Of a stretch of DNA of 64,000 nucleotides, positions 1 to 61,615 are shown in pieces. The stretch covers positions 96,001-160,000 of the IMG/VR virus record IMGVR_UViG_2706796644_000001, one strand, 5' to 3'. The translations under genes and the position numbers were made by a program. The notes below the pieces were generated by a model that worked only from the letters and a program-made list of their open reading frames with translations, was not told where the DNA came from and did not search any database. The stretch comes from a virus. Its lineage: Duplodnaviria; Caudoviricetes. Positions within the stretch are counted from its first letter, which is position 1; every line of letters starts with the position of its first letter.

Positions 1-1260
1 CCGAAATGGCTCCAACAAGGGATCATCCAATGGAACAGGGGATCGTTAGAACTAGAAAATGGTTCTAAGATTATGGCAGCATCCACGTCCAGTTCTGCTG
101 TTCGTGGTATGTCCTTTAATGTAATCTTCTTGGACGAGTTTGCGTTCGTTCCAAACCACATTGCAGATGAGTTCTTCTCATCTGTATATCCTACTATCTC
201 TTCTGGTAAATCTACCAAAGTTATTATCATCTCTACGCCACACGGGATGAATATGTTCTACAAACTGTGGCACGATTCAGAAAGAAAGAAGAATGAATAT
301 ATAAGCACTGAAGTTCACTGGTCAGAAATTCCTGGTAGGGATGACAAGTGGAAAGCACAAACTATTGCTAACACATCGGAAGCACAGTTTAAGGTTGAGT
401 TTGAGTGTGAGTTCCTAGGATCTGTTGACACTCTAATATCTCCGTCAAAACTTAAGATCATGGCATACGATGATCCTATAAAATCTAATGCTGGACTAGA
501 TATTTTTGAAGCAGCTCAGAAAGATCATCAATATGTCATTGCATGTGATGTTGCTAGAGGAGTATCTAGTGATTATTCTGCATTTGTAGTTATAGACACG
601 ACTACCTTACCATATAAGATGGTAGCAAAATATAAAAATAATACTATTAAACCAATACTATTCCCGAATGTAATCGTAGACGTTGCAAAAAATTATAATG
701 GAGCGTATATCTTAGTTGAAGTCAATGATATCGGTGGGCAAGTTGCAGACATCATACACTTTGATCTTGAGTATGATAATCTTTTGATGGCGTCCATGCG
801 TGGTCGTGCAGGTCAGATTGTTGGACAAGGATTTTCTGGAAAGAAAACCCAGATGGGAGTTAAGATGAGCACTGTTGTAAAAAAAGTTGGGTGCTCAAAC
901 ATGAAAGCATTGATTGAGGAAGATAAGTTACTCATTAGTGATTACGATATCATCTCAGAGTTGACTACCTTCATTCAAAAAGGTCAATCATTTGAGGCGG
1001 AAGATGGTTGTAATGATGACTTGGCGATGTGCCTAGTTATTTTTTCTTGGTTAGCACTACAAGATTACTTCCGTGAAATGAATGACACGGATGTTCGTCA
1101 ACGTATCTACGATGATCAAAGAGAGAATATTGAGCAGGATATGGCACCGTTTGGATTTATTTCTGATGGTTTAGAAGATGGTACATTCAAAGACTCTGGA
1201 GGGGATCTCTGGCACACAGATGAATACGGTGACCGTGCGTATATGTGGGAATACAGGTAG
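1..1260 (+). CDS. gp17: Terminase large subunit, 5' part outside window
   Basis: Frame is open from position 1. Walker B-like IFLDEFAF, IISTPHG, nuclease motifs ACDVARG and NDDLAM. Lies upstream of gp18. Confidence 0.97.
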   Translation, partial: PKWLQQGIIQWNRGSLELENGSKIMAASTSSSAVRGMSFNVIFLDEFAFVPNHIADEFFSSVYPTISSGKSTKVIIISTPHGMNMFYKLWHDSERKKNEYISTEVHWSEIPGRDDKWKAQTIANTSEAQFKVEFECEFLGSVDTLISPSKLKIMAYDDPIKSNAGLDIFEAAQKDHQYVIACDVARGVSSDYSAFVVIDTTTLPYKMVAKYKNNTIKPILFPNVIVDVAKNYNGAYILVEVNDIGGQVADIIHFDLEYDNLLMASMRGRAGQIVGQGFSGKKTQMGVKMSTVVKKVGCSNMKALIEEDKLLISDYDIISELTTFIQKGQSFEAEDGCNDDLAMCLVIFSWLALQDYFREMNDTDVRQRIYDDQRENIEQDMAPFGFISDGLEDGTFKDSGGDLWHTDEYGDRAYMWEYR

Positions 1261-51213: not shown

Positions 51214-53492
51214 GTAACGGTTTTTCAGTAAAGAAACGAGATGGTACTGTAGAGAAAATCAATCTTGATAAAGTACATGTCATGGTTGAACATGCATGTA
51301 AAGGATTGGCGGGAGTATCTGAATCTCAAGTAGAGATGAATGCTAACCTTCAGTTCTTTGATGGTATTGCAACTAAAGATGTTCAAGAGATTCTTGTTCG
51401 TTCTGCTAATGATCTGATTAGCCTTGACGCTCCCAACTATCAATTCGTTGCTGCTCGCTTGCTTCTGTTTGGTCTTCGTAAGAGTGTCTACAAGGGGCAT
51501 CCAGAACAAAGACCTACTCTGCTAGAACAACTGCGTTCGGGCGCTTCTAAGGGCATCTACGACCCCTCTCTGGAGGCAATGTATACCGAAGAAGAGTGGG
51601 GTATCATGGATGGGTTTATTGATCACGAGCGTGATTACATCTTTACCTATGCTGGTCTTCGTCAGGTAGTGGATAAATACCTAGTGCAGGATCGTAGCAC
51701 TGGTGAGGTATATGAAACTCCACAGTTCATGTACATTCTCATTGCCGCTACATTGTTTAAGCAATATGATACTTCCCGAAGATTAGATTATGTCAGAAGA
51801 TACTACAACGCAATCAGCAAGCACCGAATCAACATCCCAACGCCAGTCATGGCAGGAGTGCGAACGCCACTGCGGCAATTTGCAAGTTGTGTTCTGGTTG
51901 ATGTTGATGACACCCTCAACAGTATCTTTACTAGCGATATGGCTATTGGCCGATATGTCGCTCAACGCGCAGGCATCGGTATCAACGCAGGCAGAATCCG
52001 TGGTATCAACAGTAAGATCCGAGATGGAGAAGTTCAACACACAGGTGTTGTCCCATTCCTCAAAAAATTTGAAAGCACTGTCAGATGTTGTACTCAGAAT
52101 GGCATCCGAGGTGGATCAGCAACTGTCCACTTCCCAATCTGGCACCAAGAAATAGAGGACATCATTGTTCTCAAGAACAATAAAGGTACGGAGGATAATC
52201 GTGTCCGAAAACTTGACTACTCAATCCAAATTTCAAAACTTTTCTACGAACGTTTCATCCAGAATGGAGAGATTAGCCTCTTCTCACCGCATGACGTACC
52301 AGGTCTCTATGATGCTTTTGGTACTGATGCATTTGACGCTTGCTATGTGGACTATGAATCAGATCAGTCTATTCCAAGAAAGACTATCGGTGCTCAAGAA
52401 CTAATTCTTGACATCCTAAAAGAGAGAGCAGAGACTGGTCGTCTCTATCTGATGAACATTGACCACTGTAATACACACTCCTCATTCAAAGACAAGGTTA
52501 ACATGAGTAACCTGTGTCAAGAGATTACACTACCAACAGATCCTCTAGATCATATTGATGGTGATGGTGAGATTGCTTTGTGTATTTTGTCTGCTATTAA
52601 CGTAGGTAAAATCAAAAAGATTGATGACCTAGAAGAACTATGTGACCTTGCTGTCCGTGGTCTTGAGGAACTAATTGATTACCAAGAGTACCCTGTACTT
52701 GCTGCTCAACGTAGCACACTCGCCAGACGTTCTTTAGGTATTGGTTACATTGGACTCGCACATTACCTTGCTAAGAATGGTGAGCATTACGATGATCCCG
52801 AAGCATGGAAACTCGTCCACGAGTTGACTGAAGCATTCCAATTCTTCCTTCTTCGTGCATCTAATGCTATTGCTATAGAGAAGGGTCCATGTGAATACTT
52901 TAACCGTACTAAATATTCTGATGGCATTCTTCCAATTGATTCCTACAAGGAAGATGTTGACGAAATTGTAGTACCAGAGTACAAGTATGATTGGGATACT
53001 TTACGGATTGCTATCAAGGAATTCGGATTACGACATTCAACACTGTCGGCACAAATGCCTTCAGAAAGCAGTTCCGTTGTGTCAAATGCAACCAACGGAA
53101 TTGAGCCCCCGCGTGACTACCTGTCCGTTAAAAAATCTAAAAAAGGACCTCTAAAACAGATCGTTCCTCAATACACTACACTAAAAAATAACTACACTCT
53201 TCTATGGGAGATGACGAGTAACAGAGGTTACATTAACATTGTTGCTATAATGCAGAAGTTCTTTGACCAGGCAATCTCTGGCAACTGGAGTTATAATCCA
53301 TTGAACTATCCCAATAATGAAGTTCCAGTATCCGAGATGGCAAAAGATCTCCTCACTACTTACAAGTATGGATGGAAAACTTCTTACTATCAAAACACAT
53401 ACGATAATAAAAAAGATGGTGATGAGATTGAAACATTGATCAACGATATACTTACTACCGAGGAAGACGACTGTGACAGCTGCAAAGTTTGA
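51210..53492 (+). CDS. nrdA: Ribonucleotide reductase class Ia alpha subunit
   Basis: ATP cone VKKRDG, PTP, SC, SNLCQE, MPSESSS, KTSYY, C-terminal CDSC. Confidence 0.98.
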   Translation: MSNGFSVKKRDGTVEKINLDKVHVMVEHACKGLAGVSESQVEMNANLQFFDGIATKDVQEILVRSANDLISLDAPNYQFVAARLLLFGLRKSVYKGHPEQRPTLLEQLRSGASKGIYDPSLEAMYTEEEWGIMDGFIDHERDYIFTYAGLRQVVDKYLVQDRSTGEVYETPQFMYILIAATLFKQYDTSRRLDYVRRYYNAISKHRINIPTPVMAGVRTPLRQFASCVLVDVDDTLNSIFTSDMAIGRYVAQRAGIGINAGRIRGINSKIRDGEVQHTGVVPFLKKFESTVRCCTQNGIRGGSATVHFPIWHQEIEDIIVLKNNKGTEDNRVRKLDYSIQISKLFYERFIQNGEISLFSPHDVPGLYDAFGTDAFDACYVDYESDQSIPRKTIGAQELILDILKERAETGRLYLMNIDHCNTHSSFKDKVNMSNLCQEITLPTDPLDHIDGDGEIALCILSAINVGKIKKIDDLEELCDLAVRGLEELIDYQEYPVLAAQRSTLARRSLGIGYIGLAHYLAKNGEHYDDPEAWKLVHELTEAFQFFLLRASNAIAIEKGPCEYFNRTKYSDGILPIDSYKEDVDEIVVPEYKYDWDTLRIAIKEFGLRHSTLSAQMPSESSSVVSNATNGIEPPRDYLSVKKSKKGPLKQIVPQYTTLKNNYTLLWEMTSNRGYINIVAIMQKFFDQAISGNWSYNPLNYPNNEVPVSEMAKDLLTTYKYGWKTSYYQNTYDNKKDGDEIETLINDILTTEEDDCDSCKV

Positions 53493-54633
53493 AGTAGAAG
53501 GCATGACCGTATTTAACAAGAACAAAGTAGACACAAAGAAACAACCGATGTTCTTTGGTCAACCATTGGGAGTCCAGAGATATGACTCCTACAAGTATCC
53601 TGTGTTTGATAAACTAACGCAGCAACAACTAGGTTATTTTTGGAGACCAGAAGAAGTATCGTTACAAAAAGATCGTGCAGATTACCAAACTCTATCGGCA
53701 GAGCAGAAGCACATCTTCACTAGTAACCTTAAATACCAAATCATGTTGGATAGCGTACAAGGGCGCGGTCCTGGGATGGCTTTTATCCCTTATTGTTCAC
53801 TCCCTGAGTTAGAAGCATGCATGAATGTGTGGCAGTTTATGGAGATGGTCCATAGTCGCTCTTACACATACATCATTAAGAATGTGTATGCAGATCCTAG
53901 TGATGTGTTTGATACTATCTTGGATGATGAGAAGGTAATGGAACGTGCATCATCAGTCACTGAAGGGTACGATACTTTTATCAATCAGGCTCATCAGTAT
54001 GACAATGGAACCATGTGGGAACTTGCAAAGGAAGGTCACTATGCAGGGCAGCTTGAACGTCGTGAACTGAAACGTTCACTATATCGTGCAGTTGCTAATG
54101 TAAATATCCTTGAGGGTATTCGTTTCTATGTCAGTTTTGCATGTAGTTTTGGGTTTGGTGAACTTAAAATCATGGAAGGTAGTGCAAAAATCCTTTCTTT
54201 GATTGCTCGCGATGAGTCACAGCACTTAGTGATCACCCAGAATATCTTAAAAAACTGGAAGAATGGTGATGATCCTGAGATGGAACAGATTGCAAAGGAA
54301 GAACGACCCTATGTAATGGACATGTTTAAGAAAACTGTCAACGAAGAGAAGCAGTGGGCACATTATTTGTTCCAGAATGGTAGCATGATTGGATTGAATG
54401 AGAGACTACTTGGTATGTACGTTGAGTGGATTGCTAACCGTCGTATGAAAGCGATTGGTTTTGATCCTCTGTATGACATTCCAGCAAAGAACAACCCACT
54501 GCCATGGACTGAGTACTGGTTGAACTCTAAGGGTCAACAGAACGCTCCACAGGAGACGGAGATTGAATCCTATGTTATCGGTGGTATCACGCAGGACGTT
54601 GAAGCAAATACATTTGCAGGGTTTAGTTTGTGA
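53473..54633 (+). CDS. nrdB: Ribonucleotide reductase beta subunit
   Basis: FWRPEE, LDSVQGR, EMVHSRSY, LEGIRFY, RDESQH, APQETEIESY. Confidence 0.98.
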   Translation: MTAAKFEVEGMTVFNKNKVDTKKQPMFFGQPLGVQRYDSYKYPVFDKLTQQQLGYFWRPEEVSLQKDRADYQTLSAEQKHIFTSNLKYQIMLDSVQGRGPGMAFIPYCSLPELEACMNVWQFMEMVHSRSYTYIIKNVYADPSDVFDTILDDEKVMERASSVTEGYDTFINQAHQYDNGTMWELAKEGHYAGQLERRELKRSLYRAVANVNILEGIRFYVSFACSFGFGELKIMEGSAKILSLIARDESQHLVITQNILKNWKNGDDPEMEQIAKEERPYVMDMFKKTVNEEKQWAHYLFQNGSMIGLNERLLGMYVEWIANRRMKAIGFDPLYDIPAKNNPLPWTEYWLNSKGQQNAPQETEIESYVIGGITQDVEANTFAGFSL

Positions 54634-54712: not shown

Positions 54713-55276
54713 ATGATTAATGTTTATGAATGTGAAGAGTCTATCATTTCTGGAATGGTCAGTCTCTTCCGTGAAGTTAAAGCGACAGGTAAAGCAATTA
54801 AACCTGGAACTGTAGGACAGAATAAAGTGAGAGAGGACTACAAAAAATGTAGTGATCTATTTTTCAATGATATTCCTGATAGTAAAATTGAATACTCCTC
54901 ATCATATAAAGACGTGGAGTATCAGGAACACTTGATGGATTGTATAAAAGACTATAGTGACAAGTATCTTTTTGATGAACCTCTAGATTTCCATAGTCAT
55001 CCTAAGTACCAGTGGTACAAACCAGGAGAGGGATTTTATGCAGAGCACTTTGATGCTCTAGGACCTGAGCAAGATAGAGTAGTTGCGTTTATTACATATC
55101 TAAATACTGTTACTGATGGAGGCGGCACCCACTTTGTGTGGCAGGATCAAACAGTAGATGCAGTTGCAGGTAAAACTGTACTGTTTCCCGCAAGTTATAC
55201 TCACCGCCACAAAGGAGTCGTCTCCGAAACACAAGAAAAACTAATTATTACGGGTTGGTTTAGATGGAAGAGTTAA
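54713..55276 (+). CDS. 2OG-Fe(II) oxygenase
   Basis: HFD, TYLN, GGGT.F, FPASYTHRHKG, K.IITGW. Confidence 0.9.
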   Translation: MINVYECEESIISGMVSLFREVKATGKAIKPGTVGQNKVREDYKKCSDLFFNDIPDSKIEYSSSYKDVEYQEHLMDCIKDYSDKYLFDEPLDFHSHPKYQWYKPGEGFYAEHFDALGPEQDRVVAFITYLNTVTDGGGTHFVWQDQTVDAVAGKTVLFPASYTHRHKGVVSETQEKLIITGWFRWKS

Positions 55277-55446
55277 AACAGAACGGTCCTCTGAGCGAAG
55301 AGTTCAGAATCAAAGCCGAAAATAAATTTGATGAGTACCTGTCAGAGTTTGATGAAGGTCCTCTTATGGATGAAGGACTACAGTATCTCTGGGAGCAGGG
55401 CAAAAAGAACAATGTTAAGAAAGACACACACAAAAGTGATAAATAG
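55264..55446 (+). CDS. Hypothetical protein
   Basis: ORF overlaps the upstream stop. Confidence 0.5.
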   Translation: MEELKQNGPLSEEFRIKAENKFDEYLSEFDEGPLMDEGLQYLWEQGKKNNVKKDTHKSDK

Positions 55447-55472
55447 TATTACTGGGTCTATACTAGGTCCTA

Positions 55473-55511
55473 CGTTCATCCCTTCGGGGACGCAAGTAAG
55501 TCGCGGAACGG
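55473..55511 (+). ncRNA. Downstream-peptide (glutamine-II) riboswitch-like aptamer 1
   Basis: CGTTCA-TCCC-TTCG-GGGA-CGCAA...GGAACGG with P1 CGTTC/GAACG; upstream of a DUF4278-type peptide. Confidence 0.75.
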
Positions 55512-55513
55512 AG

Positions 55514-55693
55514 CGTTCATCCCATGCTTGATATACTTCTGTATACAACCCTCACCTGTGCTCAGACAGACGCAATTATAATGCGGATGCGAAAGTACGA
55601 ACATCTTGACACTGAGTCAAAGATTGAATTGGTTGAGGTCATGAAGGAATCAAATCCTGAATGTTATTGGGACGCAAACGACTAAAGGAACGG
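55514..55693 (+). ncRNA. Downstream-peptide riboswitch-like aptamer 2, with a 145-nt protein-coding loop
   Basis: CGTTCATCCC (55514-55523) ... GGGACGCAAACGACTAAAGGAACGG (55669-55693). Confidence 0.65.
55524..55685 (+). CDS. 53-aa protein nested in aptamer 2 (MLDILLYTTLTCAQTD...PECYWDAND), not in ORF track
   Basis: GGAG at 55510-55513, ATG at 55524, open to TAA at 55683-55685. Confidence 0.7.
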   Translation: MLDILLYTTLTCAQTDAIIMRMRKYEHLDTESKIELVEVMKESNPECYWDAND

Positions 55694-55724
55694 ATTAAAA
55701 TCCAACTACTTTAGGAGTTCACAA

Positions 55725-55892
55725 ATGAATACACTTCAAATGGTCAAGAAGCAGATCAATAAGGCATCTGCATTGCACAATGCACAGATTAGTCACACTG
55801 CTTACCGTGGTGTTGAGTATACTACACGTTGTGTAGATAACAAAGAGACACATGGTACATTCTGTTATCGTGGTCAGACCTACGCCAAATAG
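55725..55892 (+). CDS. DUF4278-type downstream peptide (55 aa), not in ORF track
   Basis: AGGAG RBS; two YRG repeats (AYRGVEY, CYRGQTY). Confidence 0.8.
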   Translation: MNTLQMVKKQINKASALHNAQISHTAYRGVEYTTRCVDNKETHGTFCYRGQTYAK

Positions 55893-55912
55893 ATGAAGTA
55901 GAACGTAATACA

Positions 55913-55940
55913 AAGAGGGGTTTAATGCCCCTCTTTTTTT
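55913..55940 (+). terminator. Intrinsic terminator
   Basis: AAGAGGGGT-TTAAT-GCCCCTCTT with T run. Confidence 0.88.
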
Positions 55941-57565: not shown

Positions 57566-57754
57566 ATGACACAGGAAGAACTCTACAACGACTTTGAACT
57601 GAACCTAGTTCATGCTGAGATTACTGCACTTGTAGATCAACTGCACGAGCATGTTTCTGCAGCTCGTGATGAAGAGTCCTTTCTGGTAACTAATCGTATC
57701 AACGAACTTATAGAATGGGCAAGTAGCTCAGTGGATAGAGCATCGCACTTCTAA
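57566..57754 (+). CDS. Hypothetical protein whose 3' end overlaps tRNA-Arg
   Basis: First ATG after the promoter; its stop falls in the anticodon loop. Confidence 0.5.
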   Translation: MTQEELYNDFELNLVHAEITALVDQLHEHVSAARDEESFLVTNRINELIEWASSSVDRASHF

Positions 57755-57789
57755 TGCGTTGGTCGGGGGTTCAAATCCCTCCTTGCCCG
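57717..57789 (+). tRNA. tRNA-Arg(TCT), CCA not encoded
   Basis: Acceptor GGGCAAG/CTTGCCC, D arm GCTC/GAGC, loop CT-TCT-AA, T loop GGTTCAAATCC. Confidence 0.95.
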
Positions 57790-57811: not shown

Positions 57812-57883
57812 TCCCAAGTAGCTCAGTGGCAGAGCCGCCGACTGTTAATCGGCTGGTCGCTGGTTCAAATCCAGCCTTGGGAG
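57812..57883 (+). tRNA. tRNA-Asn(GTT), CCA not encoded
   Basis: Acceptor TCCCAAG/CTTGGGA, anticodon arm GCCGA-CTGTTAA-TCGGC, T loop GGTTCAAATCC. Confidence 0.95.
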
Positions 57884-61471: not shown

Positions 61472-61504
61472 GGTAAACAAATGTAACGACGGTGTTCGTT
61501 TCAT

Positions 61505-61615
61505 AACCGACTCCCCCCAAACCAAGACCTATAGGGAGTATAAATTACGTCTTTAATACCTGCCTCTGAGGGTGAGACAGGAATAATTTATTAGTGTTTC
61601 CCTGCACTCTTATCT
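61505..61615 (+). ncRNA. Structured psbA leader, probably the PhotoRC-II RNA motif
   Basis: About 160-nt non-coding leader with AAGAC/GTCTT and CCTG...GAGGGTG...CAGG stems; expected location for this motif. Boundaries approximate. Confidence 0.6.

Follow-up and report, generated by a model that had tools for sequence, protein, structure and literature searches.

The window, that is, the whole 64,000-nucleotide stretch analyzed here (positions 96,001 to 160,000 of IMG/VR record IMGVR_UViG_2706796644_000001), is part of the 179-kb record of a T4-like cyanomyophage whose close relatives are phages of Synechococcus and Prochlorococcus. It carries a candidate riboswitch unit built from two copies of a glutamine-riboswitch-like motif, with one small open reading frame (ORF), ORF-B, nested in the second copy and another small gene downstream (Table 1). 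The motif CGTTCATCCC lies at 55473 and 55514 (two copies in the window against 0.06 expected from shuffles) and GGGACGCAA-N9-GGAACGG at 55487-55511 and 55669-55693 (two copies against none expected), and the whole 179-kb genome holds no further copy of either.

ORF-B begins with an ATG directly 3′ of the second TCCC and ends in W-D-A-N-D-stop. The downstream gene encodes YRG repeats and matches phrog_545 (E 5e-36) as well as PF14105 (DUF4278), the latter with 21.6 bits (E 2.8e-4), below the cut-off of 25.3. The type-II-style hairpin between the two genes holds the stop codon of ORF-B and the first two bases of the AGGAG, and its loop opens with GAACGG. Every sequence element listed in an earlier reading of the bare window sequence (the original prediction) was found where it had been placed, including the YRG-repeat peptide gene and the terminator 3′ of the aptamers.

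Table 1. Elements of the candidate riboswitch unit, in window coordinates
Feature	Position	Strand	Remarks
Promoter region: weak sigma-70-type pair GTGATA-17-TATACT	55436-55464	+	overlaps late-type box GATAAATA (55438-55445)
P1/pseudoknot 5′ strand, copy 1: CGUUC + junction A	55473-55478	+	partner by covariation: GAACG 55688-55692 (outer core)
Stem-loop, copy 1: UCCC-UUCG-GGGA	55479-55490	+	
Linking strand, copy 1: CGCAAGUA	55491-55498	+	C17-G18-C19 equivalents, by sequence comparison with PMC6698751
Helix K 5′ strand: AGUCG	55499-55503	+	partner 55679-55683
P1/pseudoknot 3′ strand, copy 1: GAACGG	55506-55511	+	partner by covariation: CGUUC 55514-55518 (inner core hairpin, loop GAG)
GGAG, possible Shine-Dalgarno of nested ORF	55510-55513	+	at inner-hairpin loop
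P1/pseudoknot 5′ strand, copy 2: CGUUC + junction A	55514-55519	+	
Long-range closing helix 5′ strand: UCCCA	55520-55524	+	partner UGGGA 55668-55672; last base is the A of the start codon
Nested gene ORF-B, 53 codons, phrog_504	55524-55685	+	small helical protein (predicted)
Closing helix 3′ strand UGGGA + copy 2 linking strand CGCAAA	55668-55678	+	encoded as Trp-Asp-Ala-Asn
Helix K 3′ strand: CGACU	55679-55683	+	covers last sense codon and first base of stop codon
Type-II-style hairpin, CUAAAG 55682-55687 with CUUUAG 55709-55714	55682-55714	+	
P1/pseudoknot 3′ strand, copy 2: GAACGG	55688-55693	+	partner 55473-55477
Shine-Dalgarno AGGAG of downstream gene	55713-55717	+	kept in alignment A2
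Downstream gene, 55 codons, DUF4278-like (IF17-like), phrog_545	55725-55892	+	
Intrinsic-terminator-like hairpin, then T run	55912-55936	+	

Helices of the unit and exchange of strands between the copies

Alignment of 59 relatives (alignment A2) keeps the closing helix UCCCA/UGGGA paired in every sequence, with C-to-U changes (giving U.G) as its only variation. The hairpin CUAAAG/CUUUAG varies at the second base of the stop codon (A-U in 35 sequences, G-C in 13, G.U in 8) and has a pairing probability of about 1.0 in a nearest-neighbor model. AGUCG and CGACU, which form helix K, are paired throughout the same alignment, and in wider samples one position is variously G-C, G.U, A-U or U-A and two more show wobbles, with no discordance; the contact that the original prediction had drawn between these two segments is thus complementary in the window and covaries in relatives. 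When RNAalifold was run unguided, it returned exactly three helices, namely helix K, the inner hairpin formed by GAACG of copy 1 and CGUUC of copy 2, and the closing helix, and placed no helix inside ORF-B.

The pocket of the solved glutamine-II RNA lies in a pseudoknot helix pairing C1-C5 with G36-G40, in which C5:G36 is among two less-conserved pairs (PMC6698751). The variable P1 position of the phage loci is the C5:G36 equivalent, and it covaries between the copies, not within them. A pattern search that left both positions free recovered 118 distinct contexts for the inner pair (G36 of copy 1 with C5 of copy 2), of which 107 carry G/C, 11 carry C/G, in combination with four different linkers, and none is discordant. 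The outer pair behaves in the same way: all 17 contigs with a non-G base in the 3′ strand of copy 2 have an A there (AAACGG), and copy 1 carries the matching T (CGTTTA) about 215 nt away in each of the 11 that could be parsed, again with no discordance. Inner and outer pairs vary independently, as in contig L290, where an outer U:A stands with a canonical inner pair. Across 67 distinct parsed units, the swapped reading is Watson-Crick at both pairs in all 67, while the unswapped reading is intact in 50. In a variant-enriched alignment of 25 sequences (A4), the swapped reading has 100% paired cells, two pairs with double changes and a covariation of 0.196 (0.074 ± 0.014 in shuffles), against 87.6% paired cells and zero double changes for the unswapped one; a further alignment (A3), which misplaced the 5′ strand in long-stem sequences, was kept out of the counts. 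Covariation support for the P1/pseudoknot pairing CGUUC:GAACG is therefore found for cross-copy partners only, with none for same-copy partners. As far as comparative sequence evidence goes, this covariation shows that the 5′ strand of copy 1 pairs with the 3′ strand of copy 2 and the 3′ strand of copy 1 with the 5′ strand of copy 2. Double changes in the inner hairpin could in principle arise by templated mutation in a quasi-palindrome; those of the outer pair, 215 nt apart, could not.

The original prediction had instead seen two self-contained tandem aptamers, each with a P1 from its own strands, joined by an AGUCG/CGACU kissing contact and with the ORF in the loop of the second, a topology we now consider improbable. 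The window and 50 of the 67 parsed units have four canonical strands, the predicted energy (-60.1 kcal/mol) is near that of the swapped fold (-61.6 kcal/mol), copy 2 stays intact in contigs that have a homing endonuclease between the copies, and alternation of both pairings might be the switch itself. In 17 of the 67 units, however, same-copy pairing leaves a C.C, G.G, U.C, G.A or C.A mismatch beside the junction, where the swapped strands are Watson-Crick throughout, and the swapped reading meets no discordant single change in 118 + 11 contexts. A circularly permuted local aptamer, in which GGGA of copy 1 would pair with UCCC of copy 2, was ruled out by independent variation, because the 3′ stem strand of copy 1 (CUGA, CGGA, AAGA, AGGU) tracks its own 5′ partner and UCCC of copy 2 is fixed.

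The tandem glycine riboswitch likewise has two aptamers in one leader with direct contacts between them, but each glycine aptamer retains its own helices, and neither strand exchange nor a nested gene is known there.

Two further potential pairings lie around these strands. The last G's of the copy 2 GAACGG take part in a mini-hairpin, GGAU-UAAA-AUCC (55692-55703), at whose site relatives retain GG...CC complementarity with differing sequences, and which may compete with the pseudoknot strand as an alternative pairing. P-HM1 (L160) and P-SSM4 (L161) have AGCCGACU in both linkers in place of AGUCG/CGACU; a small hairpin in cis is possible in their copy 1 (CCG-ACU-CGG), their ORF-B ends in KDAKAD, and their linkers seem to use a different solution.

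Relationship to glutamine riboswitches

As the original prediction had anticipated for standard model searches, an Rfam scan at gathering thresholds gives no match at the locus. In a permissive scan, copy 1 scores 25.8 bits against RF01739 (Glutamine; E 3e-3, threshold 35) and 25.5 bits against RF01704 (Glutamine-II; E 4e-4, threshold 33). The loop-closed form of copy 2 that had been proposed for scoring exists in nature: in contig L151, copy 2 is closed by TTCG and contains no ORF, and it scores 31.6 bits with RF01739 and 26.1 bits with RF01704, sub-threshold but above copy 1 of the window on both models. This makes the split copy a true homologue of the family. E-values of 1e-3 to 4e-4 in such small searches indicate, at the level of sequence, homology to a divergent subclass, and judged in this way the whole phage subclass lies below the Rfam thresholds yet is homologous to the glutamine riboswitch family. 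The description of the locus as glutamine-riboswitch-like thus holds for the cores, which are of that class, and not for the self-contained aptamers, since strands are exchanged between the copies.

The pocket nucleotides of the solved structure are C1 G2 U3, C17 G18 C19, which line the glutamine pocket, G35, and A37 A38 C39 G40 G41 (PMC6698751). CGUUC, CGCA and G-GAACGG are present in both copies and are invariant or nearly so in the 59 relatives, so that both halves contain C1, G2, G18, C19, A37, A38, C39, G40 and G41. The stem-loop after CGUUCA varies, ranging in copy 1 from a 12-nt stem to more than 200 nt, with compensatory changes. Glutamine is likely to be the ligand.

The locus shares with glutamine-II (Downstream-peptide, RF01704) CGUUCA on the 5′ side, a stem-loop of variable form, CGCA as linking strand, and a second hairpin that abuts the Shine-Dalgarno sequence and has GGAACGG in its loop; the gene 3′ of it is a putative DUF4278-type gene. 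The solved glutamine-II RNA formed a strand-exchanged dimer in the crystal, and it still binds glutamine as two pieces after a cut in the linker (PMC6698751). In the phage locus, by contrast, two tandem units of a single molecule exchange strands, a 162-nt gene occupies one stem-loop, the linkers are paired with each other (helix K) and the scores are sub-threshold. With glutamine-I (glnA RNA, RF01739), such as the Synechocystis gifB/IF17 leader (PMC6212724), the locus has in common a three-way junction and a CGUUC/GAACG P1. Glutamine-I continues with J2/3 CGGAAGUA (here CGCAAGUA), then P3, then J3/1 GAAG (here AAAG), and the outer core in the swapped reading has the same order (P1, A, P2, CGCAAGUA, P3, AAAG, P1), with helix K in the place of P3. 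Unlike in glutamine-I, this 'P3' is a connector that opens into a second, gene-carrying core, and the window has no P3 hairpin in cis. Tandem glutamine-I copies are known (PMC2864571). The literature searched covers tandem glnA RNAs, the Downstream-peptide motif, ON-switch behavior and both crystal structures, and in it we found nothing on a gene placed within a riboswitch aptamer, on tandem glutamine riboswitches with exchanged strands or on intramolecular strand exchange.

Could the structure be real and selected, and yet respond to something other than glutamine, be it a protein, another ligand or a need to couple or limit translation of the small genes? The sub-threshold Rfam scores would agree with this, as would the linking strands CGCAAGUA and CGCAAA and the junction strand CG, all of which deviate from the family consensus. 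We nevertheless think it unlikely: every nucleotide that contacts glutamine or metal in the solved glutamine-II structure is present, and the downstream gene is of the DUF4278-like type normally controlled by glutamine riboswitches (PMC6212724).

Genes enclosed in the aptamer stems

ORF-B matches phrog_504 over its full length (E 2e-30). Its homologues, at 32-70% identity, occur in 270 phage records, and 354 IMG/VR stretches matching a peptide pattern encode a relative; the layout is common to the 270 phage records and hundreds of IMG/VR contigs. Among 46 distinct 53-codon homologues, the proportion of synonymous differences (pS) in codons 2-48 is 0.578 and that of non-synonymous differences (pN) 0.193 (pN/pS 0.33), third codon positions are the most variable, and all four CGN codons are used at the invariant Arg21. 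Such a pattern, read from sequence, is that of a real, conserved gene under selection, and the conservation of the nested ORF that the original prediction called for is borne out. AlphaFold2 models the protein as small and helical with a predicted local distance difference test (pLDDT) score of 81, the last five residues (the WDAND tail) being of low confidence (block mean 47). Searches with ORF-B found no match in Pfam and only unnamed clusters in a protein atlas, and Foldseek with the model found nothing in the PDB below E = 2.

The ends of the gene behave differently from its body. The last five codons (TGG GAC GCA AAC GAC) show zero synonymous changes in the 46 homologues, their only variation being at positions 1-2 of codon 52, which gives N, H or I; this absence of synonymous change points to an RNA-level constraint on the 3′ end of ORF-B. 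The ten bases 5′ of the ATG are retained even in members of other genera (S-H9-2, S-CAM22, S-8S55, P-RSM1, S-SSM6b and S-TIM5) whose protein is down to about 40% identity. The aptamer halves are near-invariant across several phage genera while the enclosed protein falls to that level. In P-RSM4, helix K is made of AUUCG/CGAAU, and the last residue of the protein accommodates this with a change from D to E. The Bellamy homologue has no aptamer halves, lacks the WDAND ending and has a different C-terminus; the ORF-B protein family therefore exists independently of the RNA. The GGAG that the original prediction had assigned to ORF-B does overlap the end of the copy 1 P1, but it is absent from a whole class of relatives, GCAACGGTTCCGTTGA, and is therefore not an essential ribosome-binding site.

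In many relatives, a gene is enclosed in copy 1 as well. The 66-codon ORF-A (Syn9 gp196 family) lies inside the copy 1 stem in Syn9, S-TIM5, S-8S55, S-CAM1/3, P-SSM4, P-HM1 and P-RSM4 and in many IMG/VR contigs; it is phrog_6471, a family without functional annotation, has a pN/pS of 0.22 (42 sequences) and gave no match in a Pfam search. It starts right 3′ of CGTTCA-TCxx and ends at or in xxGA-CGCAAG, and its start and stop codons belong to its closing helix. Over some 200 nt these flanks covary, as TCTTATG/CATAAGA, TCTCATG/CATGAGA, TCTT/AAGA, TCTC/GAGA, TCACT/AGTGA, TCTTAC/GTAAGA, TCTCAC/GTGAGA and TCC/GGA. Pairing in the closing helix was counted over 37 distinct flank pairs: 212 of 259 cells are paired, compared with 188.6 ± 4.0 in shuffles, and none of 2000 shuffles reached the observed number. 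The closure of ORF-A is, at the sequence level, the strongest evidence for long-range closure. The window phage has a plain UUCG loop in copy 1 and carries the second nested gene, ORF-B, only. The 3′ end of ORF-A differs among phages: in P-HM1 and P-RSM4 (L162) it extends into CGCAAGUAA and stops at the UAA of that segment, and in P-SSM4 its stop is a TAG immediately 5′ of GACGCAAG.

Endonuclease genes occupy some of these loci as well (L166 657-2180, reverse complement; L024:803-1359; L050, which is Sf-CH5). A 192-codon gene situated exactly between GGAACGGAG of copy 1 and CGTTCATCCC of copy 2 belongs to phrog_314 (E 2.5e-8) and is annotated as a homing endonuclease in Sf-CH5, and a third aptamer (CGTTCATCCC...TGGGACGCAAG) encloses a 182-codon gene of endonuclease VII/HNH type (phrog_1035, E 2.8e-17), followed 3′ by a contiguous fourth aptamer and a DUF4278 gene. 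Homing may target the conserved aptamer DNA. This is reminiscent of group I introns with homing-endonuclease ORFs in peripheral loops, where a folded functional RNA likewise tolerates a gene in a loop; in relatives of the present locus, the same loops are filled by endonuclease genes. The present RNA, however, is no ribozyme and is not spliced, and its start and stop codons lie in the closing helix, where translation and folding would collide.

That the flanks are relics of a riboswitch hairpin inactivated by the arrival of a gene, and have since been kept for other reasons, such as translation signals or recombination or homing sites in the DNA, is very improbable: the endonuclease genes in the same loops of some contigs do show that insertion occurs, and thermodynamics disfavors the long-range helices, but the halves stay near-invariant around a diverging protein, the last ORF-B codons admit no synonymous change, and compensatory changes over about 200 nt with G.U intermediates fit RNA, not DNA. 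We hold with high confidence that a selected RNA structure here encloses a real gene.

Proposed regulation and genomic setting

With moderate confidence, we read the locus as one composite glutamine-class riboswitch that heads a small phage operon of ORF-B and the DUF4278/IF17-like gene. Its outer core would be made of CGUUC-A-stem-CGCA from copy 1 and GAACGG from copy 2 (55473-55498 plus 55684-55693), its inner core of CGUUC-A-stem-CGCA from copy 2 and GAACGG from copy 1 (55506-55524 plus 55668-55678), and helix K (5 bp, 55499-55503/55679-55683) would zip both linkers, joining the cores. The inner-core stem would close around the entire ORF-B with the start codon at its foot, and the last five codons and the stop would form the 3′ half of the core. 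A ribosome finishing ORF-B would occupy 55668-55698 and melt the closing helix, the linking strand, helix K and the 5′ strand of the stop-codon hairpin, so that the folded sensor and ORF-B translation would be mutually exclusive. The folded state would in turn pair the A of the start codon and hide the ORF-B start; in many relatives, the whole AUG is pairable with CAU.

Proven glutamine riboswitches are ON switches, in which glutamine stabilizes the pseudoknot helix and translation is on (PMC6212724), and by analogy glutamine would stabilize the folded state here. Helix K and the stop-codon hairpin would be rivals for C55682 and U55683, whose hairpin partners A55713 and G55714 are the first bases of the AGGAG; by taking these two bases from the hairpin, helix K would free the AGGAG of the DUF4278-like gene. 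Low glutamine would favor ORF-B instead. We regard this reciprocal logic, in which the glutamine-bound state would free the ribosome-binding site of the DUF4278-like gene and hide the start of ORF-B, as evenly poised between right and wrong. A full two-way translational toggle, whose folded double sensor would shut the nested gene or genes and turn on the IF17-like gene and whose ribosomes would erase the sensor, is a more tentative proposal. The cascade put forward in the original prediction, with aptamer 1 gating ORF-B, ribosomes on ORF-B unfolding aptamer 2 and this step gating the peptide gene, is likewise hypothetical. The toggle recalls leader-peptide attenuation, as in the trp operon, where the position of a ribosome on an upstream ORF also decides RNA structure and the fate of a downstream gene; here, however, the ORF encodes a conserved 53-residue protein, predicted to be folded, and no short sensor peptide, and the competing structure is a putative metabolite aptamer.

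Several points weigh against the composite riboswitch. The copy 1 scores lie below both curated Rfam thresholds. In the nearest-neighbor model, the swapped and unswapped long-range folds are about 10 kcal/mol above the minimum free energy of -71.3 kcal/mol, and the pairing probability of the long-range helices is at most 0.06; their cost would have to be met by tertiary contacts, Mg2+ and ligand. In the window's own lineage, no variation occurs in the closing helix, nor in four of the five pairs of each pseudoknot helix. In the window itself the four P1 strands are all canonical, which allows both pairings there, and these may alternate. Few lineages supply the key covariations, and the outer U:A class has the look of a single clade. 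Alignment A4 had been enriched for variants on purpose, and sequences that are related do not count as independent. The proposed regulatory direction is purely an analogy.

The unit sits downstream of nrdB (53473-54633) and a 2-oxoglutarate-Fe(II) oxygenase gene (54713-55276), with a transaldolase gene immediately 3′ of it. A 60-codon ORF at 55264-55446 (phrog_3133, E 1e-42) runs into its promoter region and stops at the TAG of GATAAATAG. The 'late box' of the original prediction is present at 55438 as GATAAATA, one base from the T4 late consensus, and overlaps the weak sigma-70-type pair; its simple label is tentative, because relatives repeatedly show signals of either type. Of 207 distinct segments upstream of the unit in relatives, 146 have a sigma-70-type TTGACN-16..18-TANNNT, 123 have TAAATA centered about 32 nt 5′ of CGTTCA, 84 have both and 24 have a perfect TATAAATA. 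A near-palindrome over the -10 region (55453-55469), GGGTCTATACTAGGTCC in the window and GGTCTATAATAGACC in most relatives, could be an operator or a hairpin at the 5′ end of the transcript. Elsewhere in the window lie an adjacent pair of tRNA genes (57717-57789, 72.1 bits; 57812-57883, 69.2 bits) and a PhotoRC-II RNA (61499-61594, 71 bits against a threshold of 39).

Riboswitch aptamers are treated, also by search models, as compact, non-coding and self-contained, and this locus departs from that picture twice: an entire protein gene lies within a conserved aptamer stem, which contains its start and stop codons, and tandem units exchange the strands of a key helix, as previously seen only in a crystal dimer. 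The layout explains why standard scans miss such elements, and it offers a natural setting in which the interference between translation and ligand sensing on a single mRNA can be tested. Three small cyanophage genes, all widespread, would also be linked through it to the nitrogen status of Synechococcus and Prochlorococcus cells under infection. If the toggle is true, the nitrogen status of the host would decide which of two sets of small proteins the phage makes.

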